Below are positions 2,424 to 11,777 of a stretch of DNA of 64,000 bases, piece by piece (within the stretch, counting starts at the first letter, position 1; each line of letters opens with the position of its first letter). The notes under the pieces were generated by a model that did no database searches, was not told the origin of the DNA, and saw nothing but the letters and a program-made list of their open reading frames with translations. Made by a program: the position numbers and the translations under genes. Source of the DNA: an uncultured Micavibrio sp. (lineage in GTDB: Bacteria > Pseudomonadota > Alphaproteobacteria > Micavibrionales > UBA1664); contig CAZHEE010000006.1 of the NCBI GenBank assembly GCA_964531715.1, positions 9,306-73,305 on the forward strand, given 5' to 3'.

Positions 2424-3014
2424 ATGGATGAGCGTAGAAGAAAAAATAAGAAAAAGGCCAATCCGGTTATAGCGGTTCATAAAGACAGAGCCGACTTGAT
2501 ACAAGAGCTTGCCAAAACGCGGCGAGAGCTGAGGCGCATGACGTTATTGGCTCAACATGATCAGCTGACTGGCGTTTTTAACCGTGCCGGTCTTGATGAA
2601 GCCTTTCACAAAACAATCGACCTTAACCGCGGCCTTGTTCTTTTGTTCGACCTGAATGAATTTAAAGCCATCAACGATACACATGGGCATGCGGCGGGGG
2701 ATGCCGCGCTTAAGCTCGTTGCCAAGACCTTACTGGATAATTTTCGTGATGATACGGATATCGTTGCGCGACACGGAGGCGATGAGTTCCTTGTGGTTCT
2801 ACCGGGTGCGAAAAGAGATGAAATGAGCGATCGATTAAATAAAATCGAAGATATCTTAAGCACGCTCACACTTTTATATAATGATAGTGATATTAAGGTG
2901 AAATCATCAATCGGTATTAGCTTCTATGAAAACAGCGAGGTTGAAGACCTCCATAAAGCCATCGAACGTGCAGATAAAGACATGTATAAAAATAAACAAA
3001 AAACAAAAAAATAA
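2424..3014 (+). CDS. GGDEF diguanylate cyclase with short N-terminal coiled coil
   Basis: Motifs HDQLTGVFNR, DLNEFKAINDTHGHAAGD, ARHGGDEF, SIG and ADKDMY. Confidence 0.92.
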   Translation: MDERRRKNKKKANPVIAVHKDRADLIQELAKTRRELRRMTLLAQHDQLTGVFNRAGLDEAFHKTIDLNRGLVLLFDLNEFKAINDTHGHAAGDAALKLVAKTLLDNFRDDTDIVARHGGDEFLVVLPGAKRDEMSDRLNKIEDILSTLTLLYNDSDIKVKSSIGISFYENSEVEDLHKAIERADKDMYKNKQKTKK

Positions 3015-3100: not shown

Positions 3101-4758
3101 TTACCCCAAATAGCGGCGTTTGATATGTTTCACAAGCGCGTGGTGAGACAGCTCATCGCCCGTTACTTCACTAATCAATTCATTGACGGGAAGCAACCGC
3201 CCCTTTCGATAGATTTTATGGTTGAGCCAGATATGAATATCCCCAAATTTCCCTGGCTGATCATCGAAGGCAGCGAAGGCATATCACGCAGCATTGTTTC
3301 ATAAAGCTGTGCCGCCAGCATATGCCCAAGGGCATAGGATGGGAAATAGCCGAACTTCCCGACAAACCAATGCACATCCTGCAAACAGCCCTCGGCATTA
3401 TTTTTCGGCTTCATCCCGAATAAGTCTTTGGAATATTGCGCCCATGCATCAGGTAAATCAGAGACTTTAAGGTCGCCGCTAATCAGTTTTCTCTCCAGCT
3501 GAGTTCGCATATAAATATGGAGAAAATACGTGACCTCGTCCGCCGATTTACGATCAATCGTTTTCCCCACGCTTGTTTTGAGGGCATGTAAATTTCCGCT
3601 CTCTAGGGCTTTATCGCCAAAGCGTTGAAACACACCTTCAACACGCGGTGCAAGATAATCAAAAAATTCGGCCTTACGCCCGATAATCATTTCAATTAGG
3701 AGCGCTTGGCTCTCATGAATAACCGCGCCCAAATCCTGTCCCACAGGTTGATAGCGCCATTCTTGACGGGGCAATCCCTGAATATACAGCCCGTGCCCAC
3801 CTTCATGCAATGCGGACTTCATAGAATCCAAAAATGTTCCGATTTTTGCGGTTTTAATGACAAGCCTTGTGTCATCCGGTGTGCCGCCTTCGACCGGATT
3901 ATGCCCTGTTTCATACAGACCGCCACGCTCAAAATCAAAGCCAATCATCTTTAACAAGGCACGATTAAGCCAGTTTTGAGATTTTCCGCTGAAAATCCCT
4001 GTCATTTCTATTGGCTCGGGGCGATTATTTTGCGCGGCCACGATTTGAGGGTAAAGCCGGTCAATATCATGTTTGTAATCGGTGAAAAGTCTGTCTATCT
4101 GAGCCAAATCCGTGCCAGGCATATAATCCTGCATCAAGGCGACGTAGCGTTTCTCAGGCAAGTCAGGCATGTGGTCAGCGCGATAATCAGCAATCTTCTG
4201 ATGAAGCTCGACCATGCCTTCCAAAAAAGTTTGCGCCTGTGTCCAGTCATTATTCTTTAGCACATCACGATGGACATGCCGTCCTTCATAGGCCAACCGT
4301 GCTTTCTTCTCAATTAAGTCAGAGGGAATGCCTGCATGATGGCGGATGGAAGATTCAATTTCCCTCAAATTCGCCATGTTCCAGTTATCCCAGTCATCAG
4401 GGTTGCCCTTGGCATGCGCATATGATTTTTCCAGCAAACCAATCAGTCGTTCATGCGATAAATCCTCATGCATACGGCGATAAAGAAATGCAATTTGCCC
4501 TAAGCGCGAAACATACGCCCCTTCCGGCATGGCGGTCAGGAAATCTCGCCCCATTGTTTCAATCACCGCGCCAAAGCGCCCGATATCACGAAAAGCGAGC
4601 TTCAGCGCATTATAATCTGCGGAGGCATGCTGTTCATATTGTTTAGCCCTTATTTCAGCCTGTGACTTTACAGGTTTTGGCAAGTTGAGGGCTTTCTCAA
4701 TCTTGTCCTGAGGCGTTTTGAGCCAGCCGCTGGTTAATGATTTTAAATTTTCAAACAT
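3101..4758 (-). CDS. Carboxypeptidase M32 (Taq-like) with a -1 frameshift near the 3' end
   Basis: Motifs HEGGH, HESQ, ADEVTY and QDVHW..GYFPSYALG. The ORF-track frame ends at 3175, but the family-like C-terminus (IWLNHKIYRKGRLL..ELISEVTGDELS..YLG*) continues in the -1 frame to a stop at 3101-3103. Confidence 0.88.
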
Positions 4759-4928: not shown

Positions 4929-5150
4929 ATGAAAACCATGAAAAATCACATTGATGAAACAAACCCATTTATCCCATGTATCAACAATATCACATTGAAA
5001 AAATGGAGCCGTAGCAAAAGCCTTGTTATTGATTTGGACAGCGATAACGAAATCACTTTTGAGGAATTATGCCTCGGTCTGGGTGATGTGAAGGATGATA
5101 TTTCACAAAGGCTCGGCGATTTTGAAAATGTGGATGTTCGCCTCCACTAA
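4929..5150 (+). CDS. Small hypothetical protein with one EF-hand-like Ca2+-binding loop
   Basis: DLDSDNEITFEEL (residues 35-47) fits the EF-hand loop pattern. AGGA lies upstream of the in-frame ATGs. Confidence 0.6.
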   Translation: MKTMKNHIDETNPFIPCINNITLKKWSRSKSLVIDLDSDNEITFEELCLGLGDVKDDISQRLGDFENVDVRLH

Positions 5151-5192
5151 ATTGATTTGCCAAATGCCATGCGACTGATTTAATATCTCTTT

Positions 5193-5930
5193 ATGGTTAA
5201 AAATTCAGGGGCATCTTTGGCGAAAGCATCCGATTCAACGGATGAATATTCGGCGCATAATAACTCGCTTGGCGCTGGCGGTGTTAAGGAAAAGGGCATT
5301 GCCGATACGCAAGATATGCTCAATAAAAAGGGCGAGAGCGAGATTATCAGCCCGCCTGAAAGCGGCTTTAAAAATTTTCACATCGGCCTAAGTTGGAATA
5401 ATATTATTTTGGAAAAAGCTGGCGGCCTATCAGGTCTTCTTAAGAAAGCAACTAAACAAGGGGTTGACCTCGATTTAGGATGCTTTTTCGAATTGAAAGA
5501 CGGCACGCGTGGGATTTTACAACCTTTCGGGAAATTGCACGGCAATTTAAATCGTGTGCCCTATATCGAATTATCCGAGGATGAACGGACAGGCGACAAA
5601 TCAGGCGATGATGAATATCTCAAAATTAATGGCTATAAATGGCCTCAAATCGAAAAAATACTTATCTATACATATATTTATCAGGGCGGCACGGATTGGT
5701 CCCAAATCAAACCTGAACTCACAATCAATCTTAATATGGATGAAATGGAGCCAATAAAAATTGCGCCTGCCCTTAAAACCAAAAAGATGGTCGTGTGCGC
5801 GCTTGCGACATTAACAAATGTGAAAGATGGCGTGCGAGTTACAACCCATGGTGAGTATTTTACGTCACAAGCCTCCATGGATCGCGCATTCGGGCTAGGG
5901 CTTAAATGGGAAGATGGCGCAAAGGATTAA
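5193..5930 (+). CDS. TerD-fold stress protein (TerA C-terminal-like)
   Basis: Motifs IGLSWN, GVDLDLGCFFELKDG, EDERTGDKSGDDE, IYTYIYQG and MDRAFGLGLKW..GAK. Confidence 0.8.
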   Translation: MVKNSGASLAKASDSTDEYSAHNNSLGAGGVKEKGIADTQDMLNKKGESEIISPPESGFKNFHIGLSWNNIILEKAGGLSGLLKKATKQGVDLDLGCFFELKDGTRGILQPFGKLHGNLNRVPYIELSEDERTGDKSGDDEYLKINGYKWPQIEKILIYTYIYQGGTDWSQIKPELTINLNMDEMEPIKIAPALKTKKMVVCALATLTNVKDGVRVTTHGEYFTSQASMDRAFGLGLKWEDGAKD

Positions 5931-5976
5931 AGAACGAGGCTTGTAGTCTCCGACCATCATCTCTATATAAGATAGC

Positions 5977-6987
5977 ATGGATTTTCTTTCACAAACTGAT
6001 GTTATTATTCTTGCGCTTGGAACACTTATCCTAGGCATGGCAATCCTTGTTAAAGGGGGGGATTTAACCGTTGATGGCGCGGTGCAGGTTGCACGGCATT
6101 ATGGCATGCCGCCTTTATTGGTCGGTTTTACAATTGTCGCCTTCGGAACATCTTTGCCTGAACTCATCGCCTCAATCAATGCGAATTTGAAGGGTGCAGC
6201 CGCGATTTCTGTCGGCGGTATGGTTGGCTCAAACATCTCTAATATTCTCTTTGTTGGGGGCGTTTGTGCGGCGATTTATCCGTTGAGGGCTAAACTGTCG
6301 GATCTTCGAAACGATTTCATTATGTTACTGATTGTGACTGTTGCATGGGCATACATGCTTTCAACCATGCAAATTACAGCAATTATTGGTTATGTATCAA
6401 TTTTCTTGCTTATCGCTTATGTCGCTGTTCAATATAAGCTTGCCGATAAAGGCATTCAAAATGCCGAGGCAATCACCAAGGTTGAACAAGATTTAGAAAA
6501 TAATGTCAAAAATATTAAACAAGCTTTCCTGTTTATTTTCCTAGGGCTTATCGGTTTGGCAATAGGGGCAGAGCTTCTTATCCGTGGGGCGGTTACCACT
6601 GCGCGAATTGTCGGTATTCAGGAAAGTGTGATTGGCTTGACTTTGGTCGCGCTTGGAACCTCTCTCCCTGAACTGACGACTTGCGCTATTGCTGCCATGA
6701 AAAAACAAGGCGAGATGATAATCGGAAATATTATCGGCTCAAATATCTTTAATCTTATGATGGTTTTGGGGGGTATCAGCCTTATCGGTAATTATTCGAT
6801 ATATCAAACTGAACCTGGTTTAATCAGCCAGGATATCCCCATCATGATTGGTGTCACGCTTGCTTTTATTATTGTCCTTGTTGCCTTTAAGTCCATTCCG
6901 CGGTGGGCAGGGGTTATTTTCACGCTTGGATATGTCGGATATATGTTACTCTTGATTCAGCAATCAATGGCAATTGCAGGAGTGTAA
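5977..6987 (+). CDS. Ca2+/Na+ antiporter (CaCA family, YrbG-like)
   Basis: Two alpha repeats, GTSLPE...GSNISN and GTSLPE...GSNIFN, with about 10 hydrophobic segments. Confidence 0.93.
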   Translation: MDFLSQTDVIILALGTLILGMAILVKGGDLTVDGAVQVARHYGMPPLLVGFTIVAFGTSLPELIASINANLKGAAAISVGGMVGSNISNILFVGGVCAAIYPLRAKLSDLRNDFIMLLIVTVAWAYMLSTMQITAIIGYVSIFLLIAYVAVQYKLADKGIQNAEAITKVEQDLENNVKNIKQAFLFIFLGLIGLAIGAELLIRGAVTTARIVGIQESVIGLTLVALGTSLPELTTCAIAAMKKQGEMIIGNIIGSNIFNLMMVLGGISLIGNYSIYQTEPGLISQDIPIMIGVTLAFIIVLVAFKSIPRWAGVIFTLGYVGYMLLLIQQSMAIAGV

Positions 6988-6990
6988 ACC

Positions 6991-7572
6991 ATGAGTGACG
7001 AGGCTCTCGACTACATCAATCTTAGCGAAAAAGACAGAACGGTTAAGGTCTTGCGCGTGGCCGCAGGATGGGATTTGAAAGAATTTGACGGTGAGAATAT
7101 CGATGTTGATCTCAGCTGTTTCCTGCTGGACAGCAAGGGTCAAACAAAAGCGGACAGCGATTTTGTGTTTTACAATAATTTAAAATCTGCCGATCTTGCC
7201 GTACGCCATTTGGGGGATAATCGTGATGGCTTTGGCGAGAAAGATGATGAGGCGATTATCGTTGATATTTCCGCCCTCTCATTTGAGGTTTATAAAATTG
7301 TCTTTGTCGCCTCAATTTATCTGGCGGATGAGCGGGAGCAGGATTTCACGCATGTTGATAATGCCTTTGTCCGTGTTGTGAATGACGCAACGGAAGAAGA
7401 GCTGGCGCGTGATGATATGGAAGATAAGTTCGAGGATACGACAGCCGTCAAATTTTGTGAGCTGGAACGTGTTGGTTCCGAATGGCATTTCCGACAAATT
7501 CATGAGCCGCTGCAGAAAGGTTTGAAACAGGCCGCCGAATTTTACGGCTGTATTATTTCAAGCATTGGATAG
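6991..7572 (+). CDS. TerD family protein
   Basis: Motifs GWD, DVDLSCFLL, DFVFYNN, HLGDNRDGFGEKDDE, IVFVASIY, NAFVRVVN and ELER..SEWHF. Confidence 0.92.
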   Translation: MSDEALDYINLSEKDRTVKVLRVAAGWDLKEFDGENIDVDLSCFLLDSKGQTKADSDFVFYNNLKSADLAVRHLGDNRDGFGEKDDEAIIVDISALSFEVYKIVFVASIYLADEREQDFTHVDNAFVRVVNDATEEELARDDMEDKFEDTTAVKFCELERVGSEWHFRQIHEPLQKGLKQAAEFYGCIISSIG

Positions 7573-7613
7573 TTTTCATATAGTTTGTTGACTCATATTC
7601 AGTTACCCACTAT

Positions 7614-7683
7614 CGTCACCCTGAACTTGTTTCAGGGTCTAGCCCTGATATTTGAATAGATCCTGCGATAAATTCAGGATGAT
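7614..7683. repeat. GTCA-tagged REP-like hairpin dimer
   Basis: cGTCACCCTGAA..TTCAGGGTCT-spacer-AGATCCTG..CAGGATGAT; same family as the GIY-YIG-flanking repeats. Confidence 0.75.
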
Positions 7684-7700
7684 AATAGAAAGCTTTAAAT

Positions 7701-8819
7701 ATGAAAAAAGTTATATTTGATACGGATGGCGGCGGCGACGATTTGTGGGCGATTGCCGTTCTGGCAGGTATGCTGAAACAAGGTGAGATTGACTTGAAAG
7801 CCATCACAACTTGTTTCGGTAATACAAATGCCGCGCAGGCCACACGCAATGTTTGCGATATGCTTGGTGTTCTCAATTTACCCGATATTCTGGTCTATCA
7901 AGGTTCAAACAGACCGTTAAGCGGCTTGCCGCCATTGCTGGATGGGGCTTATGGTTCAAATGGCTTAAGCAATGCGAGCCTGCCTCGCGCGGATATTGAG
8001 CCTCAAAATGAGGATGCGGTTACGGCGCTGACAAAGATTTTAAGTGATAATGAAGGGCAAATAACGATTCTCTGTACCGGTCCACTCACCAATATCGGGC
8101 AGGTGTTTCGCGATAATCCCGAATTTGACCGTGATACTGTTGAGATTGTCTGGCTCGGCGGTGCGCTTCACCCTTGTGGTGGCAACCATTTGCCTGCAAA
8201 AATGGAAAATGGCGAGCCACGCCAAGGCAACATCACGCAATATGCGGAATTTAACGCGATAAATGACCCTATTGCGGCGCAAATCATCGCCGACCTTAAG
8301 CATTCCAGCGTCACCATCATGCCGCTCGACGCAACACATCATATGGTTGTAGGTGTGACACAAGTGACAGAATTCTTACGTATGATGAAAGCAATCGGTC
8401 AATCAGAAATAGCAGTTGAAATAGCATCTATGCTGGATAATGCTGCGCAGCTTGATCAGGATAAATTTGATGCGCTTGGCGCGTTCATTCATGACCCGCA
8501 AACCGCACTTTATCTAACGCGGCCTGAGCTGTTTTTACCTGCGCGGTCACTGACAAATGTGACTTTCACAAACAACCACGAGGCGGCGCAGGCTTTTGAT
8601 GCAGTCGCTTGCGATTTTGACTTTTCAAGACTTGAAAGACATGGGCAAATGACTATGGCGGCTTACGGTGATGGAAATATTTGTTTAATCCCTGGCTTAA
8701 CAAGCTTTAGAAAGCCAGATGAAGTCAGGGCGGATGCTATCGCCGGCATGCAATGCATGGCCGAGGATAGGTTACAGGCAATTTATCAATACATTCTTAA
8801 CGCATTCGAGGTTGAATAG
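7701..8819 (+). CDS. Nucleoside hydrolase (IUNH family)
   Basis: N-terminal DTDGGGDD (DxDxxxDD) motif, plus TGPLTN, AEFN, PLDAT and HDP. Confidence 0.9.
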   Translation: MKKVIFDTDGGGDDLWAIAVLAGMLKQGEIDLKAITTCFGNTNAAQATRNVCDMLGVLNLPDILVYQGSNRPLSGLPPLLDGAYGSNGLSNASLPRADIEPQNEDAVTALTKILSDNEGQITILCTGPLTNIGQVFRDNPEFDRDTVEIVWLGGALHPCGGNHLPAKMENGEPRQGNITQYAEFNAINDPIAAQIIADLKHSSVTIMPLDATHHMVVGVTQVTEFLRMMKAIGQSEIAVEIASMLDNAAQLDQDKFDALGAFIHDPQTALYLTRPELFLPARSLTNVTFTNNHEAAQAFDAVACDFDFSRLERHGQMTMAAYGDGNICLIPGLTSFRKPDEVRADAIAGMQCMAEDRLQAIYQYILNAFEVE

Positions 8820-9453
8820 CGTTCCCAAAATCTGGCAATTTTAAATCTAATCCACTCGCTCTATTATAACCAACAAACAGAACTTTTTTGCCGTCTTCCT
8901 CGACCCAGTCACATTCATCTTCGGAAAAAATACGGCCTGTAACTTGTTCGAAATTAGGTAGCCCGTGTCGCTTTGCTTGTTCGGCTAAATATTCTATGCC
9001 CATTTCAGTTGTGCAGTTCGATAAAACAATAACTTTCTCTGGACTTGCATCAGCTAAAGCAGAAAAATGCTTTACAACCGAACCTCCCGTTGCAATTACA
9101 CCATCAGTGATAAAAACGACTTGTGGCTGAATAAGTTTCAACAAATCACCTAAAATATGTTTCTGATTCTTTTCTGTTTTTATACGGCTCTCAACATAAA
9201 TCATATCGCCTGTCTCATGGTCGGCCAAAGCGCTAAAAGTAGCTTTCGCTGTAGGAATGCCACCTCTGGGAATTGCAATAACGCCTGCCAGTTTTTCTTT
9301 GTAATACCCATATTGAGTACTTAAATACTGGCGGGCTAATATTTCAGAATGTCTGTAAACTGCTTTAGCAAATTGTATACCCATAGGAGTTTTTCCATTC
9401 GTAAGCATTTCAAAAGATGGGTCTGTAATTAGTTTTGAAGAAGTCGCTGACAT
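8797..9453 (-). CDS. Type I phosphoribosyltransferase, divergent uracil-PRTase-like
   Basis: IAIPRGG, PRPP loop VFITDGVIATGGS, and C-terminal LPDFGNAI (compare UPRTase GLGDxGDR). Likely start is ATG 9453, preceded by AAGGA; the ORF track extends to 9513. Confidence 0.75.
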   Translation of the reverse strand: MSATSSKLITDPSFEMLTNGKTPMGIQFAKAVYRHSEILARQYLSTQYGYYKEKLAGVIAIPRGGIPTAKATFSALADHETGDMIYVESRIKTEKNQKHILGDLLKLIQPQVVFITDGVIATGGSVVKHFSALADASPEKVIVLSNCTTEMGIEYLAEQAKRHGLPNFEQVTGRIFSEDECDWVEEDGKKVLFVGYNRASGLDLKLPDFGNAIQPRMR

Positions 9454-9531
9454 TGTGAATTCCTTATTTAAGTTGACGTATTGGTAAATATTGTCATATA
9501 CATTGTCAAGCAAATTTATTAAGGATATACA

Positions 9532-10200
9532 ATGTTAGGTGAAATATACGATTTTGATAACGCTATTTACCCTGACCCAGAAATAAAAAACGAAGTATTT
9601 CTAAGAGCAGCTATAGAGGCCGCCATATTATTAAGGCCTAATTTATCAAAAGAAGTTATAGAAGAAAAAGCCAAAAACTCATACAAAAAATATGGAACAG
9701 ATTTTGGTGTGTTTGTGGAAGAATTTGATATTCCTATTTCTGAGATACATCCATTATACCATCGTTTAGCGATGGAAGAGATATTCGATGCTGTTAATAT
9801 TGACGAAGATGTTATTAAACATTTTGAAGGAAGGTTATTAGTTGGATTGCCTTTTTCAATAGTAACGCATGGGAGCTTGGAATGGTTATTACACGGACTA
9901 AAAAAATTAAAAATATCGAATTTATTTAGGCAAGATTTTTTATATGCTGTTGATATGCCAGAAATAAATTACCGGCATAAACATGAATCTAACGATGCAT
10001 TATGTATGGCTGCTCGTGCAATGGGTTTAAAAGACATAAGCCAGACAAGGTTTTTTGATGATTCAAGAAAAAACCTTAAAATGGCAAGAGAAGGTTGTGC
10101 CGAAACCGTTCTTGTGCATTGGGGGCATGATATACCTCAGCAAGATGATCAAAGTTATATTTCTAGAAAAGTAAACCATATATCTGACTATACACTTTAA
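9532..10200 (+). CDS. HAD-superfamily hydrolase, pyrimidine 5'-nucleotidase-like
   Basis: Motif I DFDNAIYP, cap YKKYGT, motif II VTHG, motif III K, motif [19 protein letters not shown]. Confidence 0.78.
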
Positions 10201-10223
10201 TTATTTTGATGCATAAAATAGCT

Positions 10224-11777
10224 ATGCATCATGATCATATATTAATTCTCGATTTTGGCTCTCAAGTGACACAGCTTATCGCGCGGCGGGTGCGGGAGCA
10301 TGGTGTTTACTGTGAAATTTGGCCGTTTAACGATGCCTCACTAGAGCGTATTAAAAAATTTCAGCCTAAGGCAATTATCCTCTCGGGCGGGCCTGCAAGC
10401 GTGACAGAGCCAGGCTCCCCCCGCGCTCCTGCCGAAATTTTTGAGATGGGCATTCCAATCCTCGGCATTTGTTATGGACAACAAACGCTTGTCGAACAAC
10501 TGGGCGGCACAGTCGAGGCAGGGCATCACCGCGAATTTGGCCGCGCCGAGATTGCGATTACCCAAAATTGCGCCCTTTTCGGCAGTACATGGACAGAAGG
10601 CTCCACCCCGACCGTCTGGATGAGCCATGGCGACCGCGTCACGAAAATCCCTGAAGGCTTTGAGATTGTCGCAACCTCAAAAGGCGCACCATGCGCGATT
10701 ATCGCGGATGAAAGCCGCCATTTTTACGGCATACAATTCCATCCCGAGGTCATGCACACCCAAAACGGGTCGGACATTATCCGCAATTTTGTGATTGAAA
10801 TTGCAGGCTGCTCAGGTGACTGGACCATGGCGTCCTACAAGGAAGAAGCAATTGCAAAAATCCGCGCGCAAGTCGGTCGTGAGAAAGTGATTTGCGGCCT
10901 GTCAGGAGGCGTGGACAGCTCGGTTGCCGCCGTTCTCATCCATGAAGCCATCGGCGATCAGCTCACCTGTATCTATGTCGATACGGGCATGATGCGCAAG
11001 GGTGAGAGCGACCAAGTCGTGAAGCTGTTCCGCGACCATTATAATATTCCGCTTATTCACGAGGATGCGAGCGACCTTTTCTTAAGCAAACTTGAGGGCT
11101 TGGATGACCCTGAAAAGAAACGCAAAATTATCGGTAATACATTTATTGATGTGTTTGATGCATGTGCCTCGCGCATTGGCGGCGCAGATTGGCTGGCGCA
11201 AGGCACGCTCTATCCCGATGTTATTGAAAGTGTGAGCTTTACTGGCGGGCCAAGTGTTACGATTAAATCGCATCATAATGTGGGTGGTTTGCCCGAAAAG
11301 ATGAATCTCAAAATCCTTGAGCCACTCCGCGAATTATTTAAAGATGAGGTGCGCGATTTGGGGCGGACATTGGGTTTGCATGATGATTTCGTATCGCGCC
11401 ATCCTTTTCCCGGGCCGGGCTTGGCGGTGCGTTGCCCGGGGGAGATTACGCGTGAGAAGCTGAATATTTTAAGGGAAGCCGATGCGGTTTACCTCGACGC
11501 TATTCGCGAAGAAGGCTTATATAATGAGATTTGGCAGGCCTTTGCCGTTCTCCTCCCTGTTCGGACTGTCGGTGTGATGGGTGACGGGCGGACATATGAT
11601 TATGCCTGCGCCTTGCGGGCGGTAACGTCTACGGACGGTATGACGGCGGATTTTTACCCGTTTGAAATGGATTTTTTGAGCCGTGTTGCAACGCGTATTA
11701 TTAATGAAGTGCGCGGCATTAATCGTGTCACATATGACATTACATCCAAACCCCCCGGCACGATTGAATGGGAATAA
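10224..11777 (+). CDS. guaA: GMP synthase (glutamine-hydrolysing)
   Basis: Motifs [34 protein letters not shown] and KPPGTIEWE. Start may be 10206, 10209 or 10224. Confidence 0.98.

Follow-up and report, generated by a model that had tools for sequence, protein, structure and literature searches.

A stretch of 64,000 nucleotides (nt) from the genome of an uncultured Micavibrio sp. (hereafter the window) contains three adjacent genes at 5193–7572 that encode a TerD-like protein, an antiporter of the CaCA family and a canonical TerD protein. We propose that these genes form a reduced Ter-type Ca2+ module in which the CaCA antiporter has displaced the membrane protein TerC, and we put the probability of this interpretation at roughly 0.6. 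A first-pass annotation of the window had grouped five genes into one calcium-themed run, and the coordinates of the open reading frames (ORFs) do give five co-oriented ORFs separated by 42, 46, 3 and 128 nt (by subtraction). As judged from gene neighbourhoods, the unit is the three genes at 5193–7572 and not all five, because the order of the triad recurs in related loci and the other neighbours do not.

Conservation of the triad in the Micavibrio-like order

A family alignment of the TerD-like protein was scanned against one genome per species, which gave 515 relatives, and the best 80 loci, each with a Micavibrio-like title, were analysed. The titles of the nearest related records name Micavibrio sp. 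or Alphaproteobacteria metagenome-assembled genomes. In 43 of the best 80 loci, the TerD-like, CaCA and TerD genes follow one another on one strand and encode proteins with ~40–45% identity to those of the window. The TerD-CaCA-TerD order to which the first-pass annotation drew attention is thus conserved beyond the window genome. The TerD-like gene stands alone within 4 kb in a further 10 loci, at least one of which (L065) ends ~290 bp past the gene, so that its downstream content cannot be judged, and one locus breaks off inside the CaCA gene.

The gene order was also viewed in an even sample of the order (201 genomes), in which a TerD homologue is almost universal and single-copy (196/201 genomes). 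Among the best 29 non-self loci of this sample, drawn from families f1, f5 and f6 and viewed with 1.5 kb on either side, CaCA adjoins TerD in 23, TerD-like directly precedes TerD in four and TerD occurs alone in two. In a genome of a different family (G002, family f3), the three genes are adjacent and reordered as TerD, TerD-like and CaCA.

The genes on either side of the triad are varied housekeeping genes, such as those for an ABC-F ATPase, methyladenine glycosylase, exonuclease VII and ParAB, and neither TerB, TerC nor nucleoside enzymes were found among the flanking genes of the 19 loci inspected. The window genome (1.57 Mb, 99.99% complete) has no match to PF03741 (TerC) or PF05099 (TerB) anywhere. 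The proposal of a Ter variant without TerB and TerC is therefore upheld, both by the conserved triad and by this genome-wide absence.

In many loci, a conserved gene of 166–195 amino acids (aa) without a Pfam match lies directly 3´ of TerD in convergent orientation (minus strand; L051:6471–7010, L053:6459–6974, L057:6421–6972, L060:6497–7078, L062:6458–7006, L081:6497–7084, L085:6501–7001 and L093:6459–7043). It is followed in most of these loci, L085 excepted, by a gene of ~360–440 aa, which has a weak SNase match in two loci.

The antiporter occupies the TerC position in ter operons

The origin of the triad was traced in genomes outside the order. TerD is rare among other Alphaproteobacteria: 12 of the 301 genomes sampled have it, or 10 of 299 (a count that includes the unpublished genome G240) once the window genome and one genome of the same order were removed. 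A CaCA gene lies beside TerD in three of these ten (G359, G344 and G492), and beyond the order the CaCA-TerD pairing was seen in four genomes of Alphaproteobacteria. The phylum sample holds 51 TerD-bearing genomes among 401, and CaCA was found at one of 30 TerD loci, in genome G642. The same genome contributes the top CaCA from outside the order (45% identity), and of the 29 CaCA loci viewed, this one alone has TerD neighbours.

The G642 locus (L186) encodes, in order, TerY (vWA), PP2C, a protein kinase, TerD, a TerA-like protein, TerB, Na_Ca_ex, TerD, TerD, PRTase_2/TRSP, a 244-aa protein and StiP/PELOTA. The G359 locus (L187) reads TerB, Na_Ca_ex, TerD and TerD. The classic arrangement, seen in Alkanindiges (L004), is TerA, TerD, DUF475/TerC and TerD. 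By comparison with this order, the antiporter occupies the exact position of TerC in the ter operons of G642 and G359, two unrelated alphaproteobacteria.

Compared with the classic ter operon (terZABCDEF), the triad retains paralogous TerD-domain genes with Ca2+-site motifs that flank a membrane transporter gene, as well as a TerA-type domain upstream and TerD downstream, as in L004 and L186. In contrast, the window genome lacks both TerB and TerC, and its TerA is cut to the C-terminal domain. The membrane component in the window is a CaCA antiporter unrelated to TerC, and genes for PRTase_2, ATP-grasp, StiP, C-C lyase and TerY are absent. Like TerC-superfamily exporters such as Alx, the antiporter fills the operon slot between terB/terA and terD and would be a membrane divalent-cation transporter, although the two have no sequence relationship. 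A report on E. coli Alx, a member of the TerC superfamily, describes it as a Mn2+ exporter (PMC10197570). With Mn2+ reported for Alx and Ca2+ predicted for CaCA, both occupants of the slot may be divalent-cation transporters.

The genomes G344 and G492 of family f152 carry the order TerD-like, Na_Ca_ex, HAD (PF12710) and TerD. The HAD gene between CaCA and TerD lies at L188:6803–7390 and L189:7731–8321, and the four-gene unit is located beside the lipid A genes for LpxK, Kdo transferase and lipid A acyltransferase. A gene for an M32 (Taq-type) carboxypeptidase is found near the Ter/CaCA cluster both in G642 (L186:20–922) and in the window (3175–4758), which may be a coincidence.

The two TerD-fold proteins

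The ORFs of the run, together with a promoter-like site inside it, are as follows.

4929–5150, plus strand: 73-aa ORF; an adjacent small gene, judged to lie outside the module
5157–5186, plus strand: promoter-like TTGCCA-18-TAATAT; a weak site from a consensus scan (9/12 matches) that ends 6 nt before the ATG of the TerD-like gene
5193–5930, plus strand: TerD-domain protein of the TerA C-terminal type, 245 aa; module member
5977–6987, plus strand: YrbG/NCX_Mj-type CaCA antiporter, 336 aa; module member
6991–7572, plus strand: canonical TerD (TerD193), 193 aa, starting 3 nt past the CaCA stop codon; module member
7701–8819, plus strand: IUNH nucleoside hydrolase, 372 aa; adjacent, judged to lie outside the module

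TerD193 matches the Pfam TerD profile (PF02342) over positions 11–186 of 187 with 178.7 bits, compared with a cut-off of 25.3. Its residues 9–187 align with K. pneumoniae TerD (2KXT/2KXV; E=1.4e-42), and it retains the DxD and GDNR.G...DDE motifs of that protein. The two differ in the central loop, which reads GDNRDGFGEKDDE in TerD193 and GDNRTGEGDGDDE at the aligned positions of K. pneumoniae TerD. Five residues (D38, D40, D76, D85 and E87) do not vary among 75 family sequences, and the corresponding residues are presumably the Ca ligands in 2KXT. The title of PDB entry 2KXT names the calcium binding properties of TerD. In two loci, the TerD open frame extends 115–180 residues further upstream (L048:6015–7136, 373 aa; L119:5724–6704, 326 aa), which reflects either an extra N-terminal region or merely an upstream in-frame start codon.

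The 245-aa TerD-like protein scores 18.7 bits on the Pfam TerD profile, under the cut-off of 25.3, and matches only profile positions 7–115. Three lines of evidence nevertheless identify it as a TerD-fold protein, in part on the strength of a predicted structure. The profile of its family matches PDB 3IBZ (E=6.3e-6). The protein shares 37% identity with the C-terminal half of the two-domain TerA-like protein in the classic Alkanindiges ter cluster, and 33% with residues 205–397 of the L186 TerA-like protein (BLAST). An AlphaFold model, built from an 82-sequence alignment with a predicted local distance difference test score (pLDDT) of 76.8 and a predicted template modelling score (pTM) of 0.77, is matched by Foldseek to 2KXT (6.7e-8), 3IBZ (2.2e-7) and 2QZ7 (3.1e-7), with 2QNG in the range of 1e-7 to 1e-8. 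The modelled fold would thus be common to K. pneumoniae TerD (2KXT/2KXV), Streptomyces TerD (3IBZ) and the TerD-like protein of the window.

The acidic loop of the TerD-like protein reads SEDERTGDKSGDDE. Across the 82 sequences of its family, D92, D94, G134, G138 and E141 are invariant, D130 and D140 are present in at least 90%, and the DLDLG and GDERTG..GDDE motifs are conserved. The acidic TerD loop ascribed to both Ter proteins in the first-pass annotation is accordingly present and conserved in each family. The TerD-like protein also has a conserved N-terminal extension of ~45 residues, which is probably disordered.

The start of the TerD-like gene differs between the window and its relatives. 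An AAGGAG Shine-Dalgarno sequence lies ~8 nt before the start codon in five same-genus relatives (L001, L002, L003, L005 and L011), and none was found before the gene in the window when positions 5113–5201 were compared with these five loci. The promoter-like TTGCCA-18-TAATAT site may be the module's own promoter and give a leaderless mRNA. The missing Shine-Dalgarno sequence and the position of this site, 6 nt before the ATG, suggest that the region 5´ of the TerD-like gene was replaced when the 73-aa ORF came to sit there.

The antiporter belongs to a distinct Ter-linked group

The 336-aa protein matches Pfam Na_Ca_ex in two repeats with 195.2 bits and is the sole Na_Ca_ex/CaCA gene product of the window genome. 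It is of the YrbG type (TIGR00367; 228.1 bits against a cut-off of 179.65) and, on the equivalog model for E. coli YrbG (NF008005), scores less than the cut-off (200.8 against 432). A comparison with NCX_Mj gives E=3e-37. The GTSLPE motif, presumably part of the metal site in NCX_Mj, shows no variation in either repeat in an alignment of 49 sequences. The antiporter shares with NCX_Mj of Methanocaldococcus jannaschii (PDB 3V5U/5HWX) and with the bacterial YrbG family the two Na_Ca_ex repeats and, in each repeat, GTSLPE together with a G(N/G)xxGSNI.N motif. It differs from them in belonging to a separate group that is found beside TerD genes.

This group was resolved in a quick maximum-likelihood tree that combined 52 CaCAs linked to Ter genes with the 28 best of those in the phylum sample that lack such a link. 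A single branch of length 0.92 separates all 52 linked sequences from the 28 unlinked ones, with a Shimodaira-Hasegawa-like approximate likelihood ratio test (SH-aLRT) value of 100. The four Ter-linked CaCAs that belong to three other families of Alphaproteobacteria fall within the Micavibrio-like sequences. The Ter-linked CaCAs are thus a distinct CaCA group with obligate-looking partners.

Only four positions carry group-specific residues (F51, Q152, E199 and P215). Q152, which we place at the start of a cytoplasmic loop, is present in 92% of the linked and 0% of the unlinked CaCAs. A docking site defined from these residues was considered and rejected, as four positions are too few.

Proposed function of the triad and points against it

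The module would have originated from a ter operon variant with a CaCA antiporter in place of TerC; the Micavibrio-like order would then have lost TerB and kept only the C-terminal domain of TerA. In the cytoplasm, the two TerD-fold proteins are predicted to bind Ca2+ at their conserved acidic sites and to buffer or sense it, and the antiporter would extrude Ca2+ in exchange for Na+ or H+. Together, the three proteins may serve as the cell's Ca2+ homeostasis and stress unit.

Several findings weigh against this proposal. The choice of Ca2+ as the antiporter's ion derives from homology to NCX_Mj as its single line of evidence, and we know of no demonstrated Ca2+ transport by E. coli YrbG. A single transcript for the triad is likewise a prediction from the DNA sequence, and a search for sequencing runs listed four DNA runs from a single microbial-mat study and no RNA run. 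The tree that sets the Ter-linked CaCAs apart is midpoint-rooted and comes from a quick search, and its linked rows represent mostly one order. G642 and G359 carry TerC elsewhere in the genome, so that 'displacement' refers to the operon slot and not to the genome. The triad itself is not indivisible: TerD-like is followed by TerD with nothing between them in 26 of the best 80 loci, and among same-genus relatives the TerD-like gene can sit away from CaCA-TerD (L003 and L005, compared with L009). Of five genomes that carry the two-gene form, four lack Na_Ca_ex genes altogether, among them the complete genome of Micavibrio aeruginosavorus HCB189. Because the pair persists where the CaCA gene is absent, the TerD pair would be able to work without the antiporter.

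The distribution of the two forms bears on how the antiporter came to be missing. In a FastTree phylogeny of the TerD-like family, CaCA presence switches at least five times, even if branches without good support are disregarded. Given these changes and the single CaCA group, the pattern is most simply explained by repeated loss of CaCA within the order.

Alternative explanations

In a tentative alternative, which lies at the core of the first-pass annotation's inference and which we regard as doubtful, the cytoplasmic face of the antiporter would be a docking site for one or both of the TerD-fold proteins, which would gate transport according to their Ca2+ occupancy, acting in trans as CBD1 and CBD2 do in eukaryotic NCX, where they are Ca2+-binding β-sandwich regulatory domains. 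TerD is itself a Ca2+-binding β-sandwich, the CaCA-TerD gap is 3 nt in the window, adjacency of the two genes is kept over deep divergence, and the Ter-linked CaCAs form a distinct group with a few residues of their own, such as Q152. However, the gap measures ~100–600 nt in other loci, the proposed contact would be deduced from sequence features, and the TerD pair persists without any CaCA gene. Gating can thus at most be one of several roles of the pair, which is retained in many lineages that lack the antiporter. The parallel with NCX1 is also limited in structure: in both cases Ca2+-binding β-sandwich domains would be functionally tied to an NCX-type exchanger, whereas CBD1 and CBD2 are Calx-beta domains fused into the exchanger loop and TerD is a different fold family encoded by a separate gene. 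By the same analogy, one might speculate, at similarly long odds, that the Ter-linked CaCA is a prokaryotic NCX-type exchanger with its Ca2+ sensor in trans through TerD docking, and that the classic Ter system performs TerD-regulated divalent-cation export with TerC and CaCA as interchangeable transporters.

It is also unlikely that the triad is a stress or anti-phage device of the classic Ter kind, in which the antiporter and the TerD proteins would generate or sense a Ca2+ signal when the envelope is damaged or the cell infected, and not a housekeeping unit of Ca2+ homeostasis. Classic ter operons confer resistance to phage, colicins and tellurite, and the fullest relative of the window locus (L186) lies within a complete ter system with TerY, PP2C, a protein kinase and StiP. 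The repeated loss of CaCA is moreover a pattern typical of accessory functions. Against such a role, TerD is near-universal and single-copy in the order, the flanks consist of housekeeping genes and not of a defence island, and a PADLOC search gave no match for any of seven window proteins.

A reduced Ter-type Ca2+ module therefore remains our preferred interpretation. The parts of the module and the Ca2+ link of TerD are already known; what appears to be new is the exchange of CaCA for TerC, the minimal triad and its near-fixation in one order. The Ter system is widespread, and Anantharaman, Iyer and Aravind are said to have analysed Ter stress-response systems in 2012. A joining of TerD with a CaCA/YrbG antiporter was not found in the literature searched, which excluded this 2012 survey of Ter neighbourhoods, and priority is uncertain. 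A 2026 report on a jumbo phage (PMC12880540) describes a different arrangement, in which two terD genes flank a hypothetical gene and a Ca2+ P-type ATPase is encoded elsewhere.

The mechanism of Ter is still obscure, which gives the association of CaCA with TerD its value. The antiporter appears in the TerC slot first within complete ter operons and then in a minimal three-gene unit that is kept across an order of predatory bacteria. This succession would provide independent comparative evidence that the core task of TerD is tied to the handling of divalent cations, presumably Ca2+, at the membrane. The triad, with two soluble proteins and one transporter and without TerB, TerC or biosynthetic genes, offers a very small and tractable system for the study of TerD function.

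The 73-aa ORF upstream of the triad

The first-pass annotation had assigned the 73-aa ORF at 4929–5150 as an EF-hand microprotein of the run. The loop pattern on which this assignment relied is present: DLDSDNEITFEEL matches PROSITE PS00018. The conservation of the loop does not hold up. One credible homologue was found in seven genomes of the genus, a 72-aa open frame in G057 (L123:1495–1713; E=1.3e-21, 47% identity), whereas the flanking Ter proteins are 74–81% identical between the same genomes. In its loop, DIKEKSAMTYEEL, ligand positions 3 and 5 are taken by K. The gene follows one for a T2SSE-family ATPase and is not linked to the Ter genes. The homologue has no Pfam match. A further match in G034 (E=0.417, internal stop) was dismissed, and a search of a set of 5.8 billion proteins with the 73-aa ORF returned the query itself as the only match.

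The number of pattern matches in the genome is at the level of chance. In ORFs of at least 60 aa (761,004 aa in total), composition predicts ~3.3 matches to PS00018 and seven were found; four of the seven sit in two proteins with paired loops, and the remaining three single matches, the 73-aa ORF included, equal the chance expectation. The two paired-loop ORFs, of 193 aa (C1:255828–256409, minus strand) and 92 aa (C7:42196–42474, plus strand), each have two matches of the DxNxDG or DxDxDG type and are likelier than the 73-aa ORF to be true EF-hand proteins.

The profile data are consistent with this view. The 73-aa ORF has a single candidate loop, whereas EF-hands are usually paired helix-loop-helix units, and scores 15.7 bits on EF-hand_1 (cut-off 25.4) and 14.0 on EF-hand_5 (cut-off 25.9), with only the loop and the exiting helix matched. 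An AlphaFold 2 model, of a confidence too low to decide the matter (pLDDT 62.7, two-sequence alignment), has a strand at residues 31–36 before the loop in place of a helix, which gives a strand-loop-helix. No EF-hand protein is among the top 50 Foldseek matches of this low-confidence model, and the best match (E=0.07) is to the C-terminal domains of the cation-diffusion-facilitator (CDF) proteins MamB/MamM. An EF-hand microprotein as a part of the module is not supported, given the loss of ligands and the unlinked position of the G057 homologue. From these comparisons, we judge the 73-aa ORF to be a real, fast-evolving orphan small gene that is not an EF-hand and stands outside the module.

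The 73-aa family has a conserved C-terminal half, EELC.G.GD.K.D....LG.FEN...R.H. The low-confidence model as a whole is β-β-α-β, with a weak likeness (E=0.07) to metal-binding CDF C-terminal domains.

The nucleoside genes between terD and guaA

Downstream of the triad, the IUNH protein at 7701–8819 matches IU_nuc_hydro (PF01156) with 206.4 bits against a cut-off of 34.2. Its translation carries DTDGGGDD at residues 7–14, in agreement with an N-terminal DxDxxxDD, which we take to define the IUNH motif. An IUNH gene follows TerD in the window and in one sister genome (G039) only. In three same-genus relatives (G057, G034 and G066), the stretch between terD and guaA instead holds a PNP_UDP_1 phosphorylase gene on the opposite strand. 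This stretch corresponds to 7573–11777 in the window, and the phosphorylase genes lie at L007:1240–2136, L010:8587–9474 and L011:5394–6119. It looks like a variable, genus-specific nucleoside-salvage slot attached to guaA, with non-orthologous replacement of its content.

The first-pass annotation had raised a link between the run and the adjacent nucleoside enzymes, and this link found no support. No homologue of IUNH, PRT, HAD, GuaA or PNP occurs within 4 kb in the best 80 loci. The PRTase of the window, a protein of the UPRTase/Pribosyltran type, is encoded on the opposite strand. The HAD-like gene, which has a below-cut-off TIGR01993 hit as its only match, resembles a pyrimidine 5´-nucleotidase and ends 5 nt before guaA. 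BLAST comparison of either protein with the PRTase_2 and HAD proteins linked to Ter in L004, L186 and L188 gave no match at E<1. The IUNH, PRTase and HAD proteins were therefore rejected as enzymes of a Ter-associated nucleoside-like metabolite, given their absence from the best 80 loci and their families, which are not those associated with Ter.

A five-gene calcium operon, with the two TerD proteins, the antiporter, an EF-hand microprotein and a Ca2+-dependent nucleoside hydrolase acting together and tied to a nucleoside-like metabolite, is very improbable: it draws on the common orientation and short gaps of the five genes, on the PS00018 match with its weak EF-hand_1 score, on the second IUNH gene after TerD in the sister genome and on the PRTase_2, HAD and StiP genes of full ter systems and the HAD of family f152, but the 73-aa homologue has lost its ligands and its Ter neighbours, the pattern match is expected by chance, the low-confidence model shows a strand-loop-helix with no EF-hand protein among its top 50 matches, and the nucleoside genes are missing from the best 80 loci, with a PRTase and a HAD unlike the Ter-linked ones and placed on the opposite strand and next to guaA, respectively.

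Elsewhere in the window, two genes with GGDEF domains lie in tandem at 1716–2387 and 2424–3014. The first of them covers only positions 5–96 of the 161-position profile and is probably degenerate or truncated.

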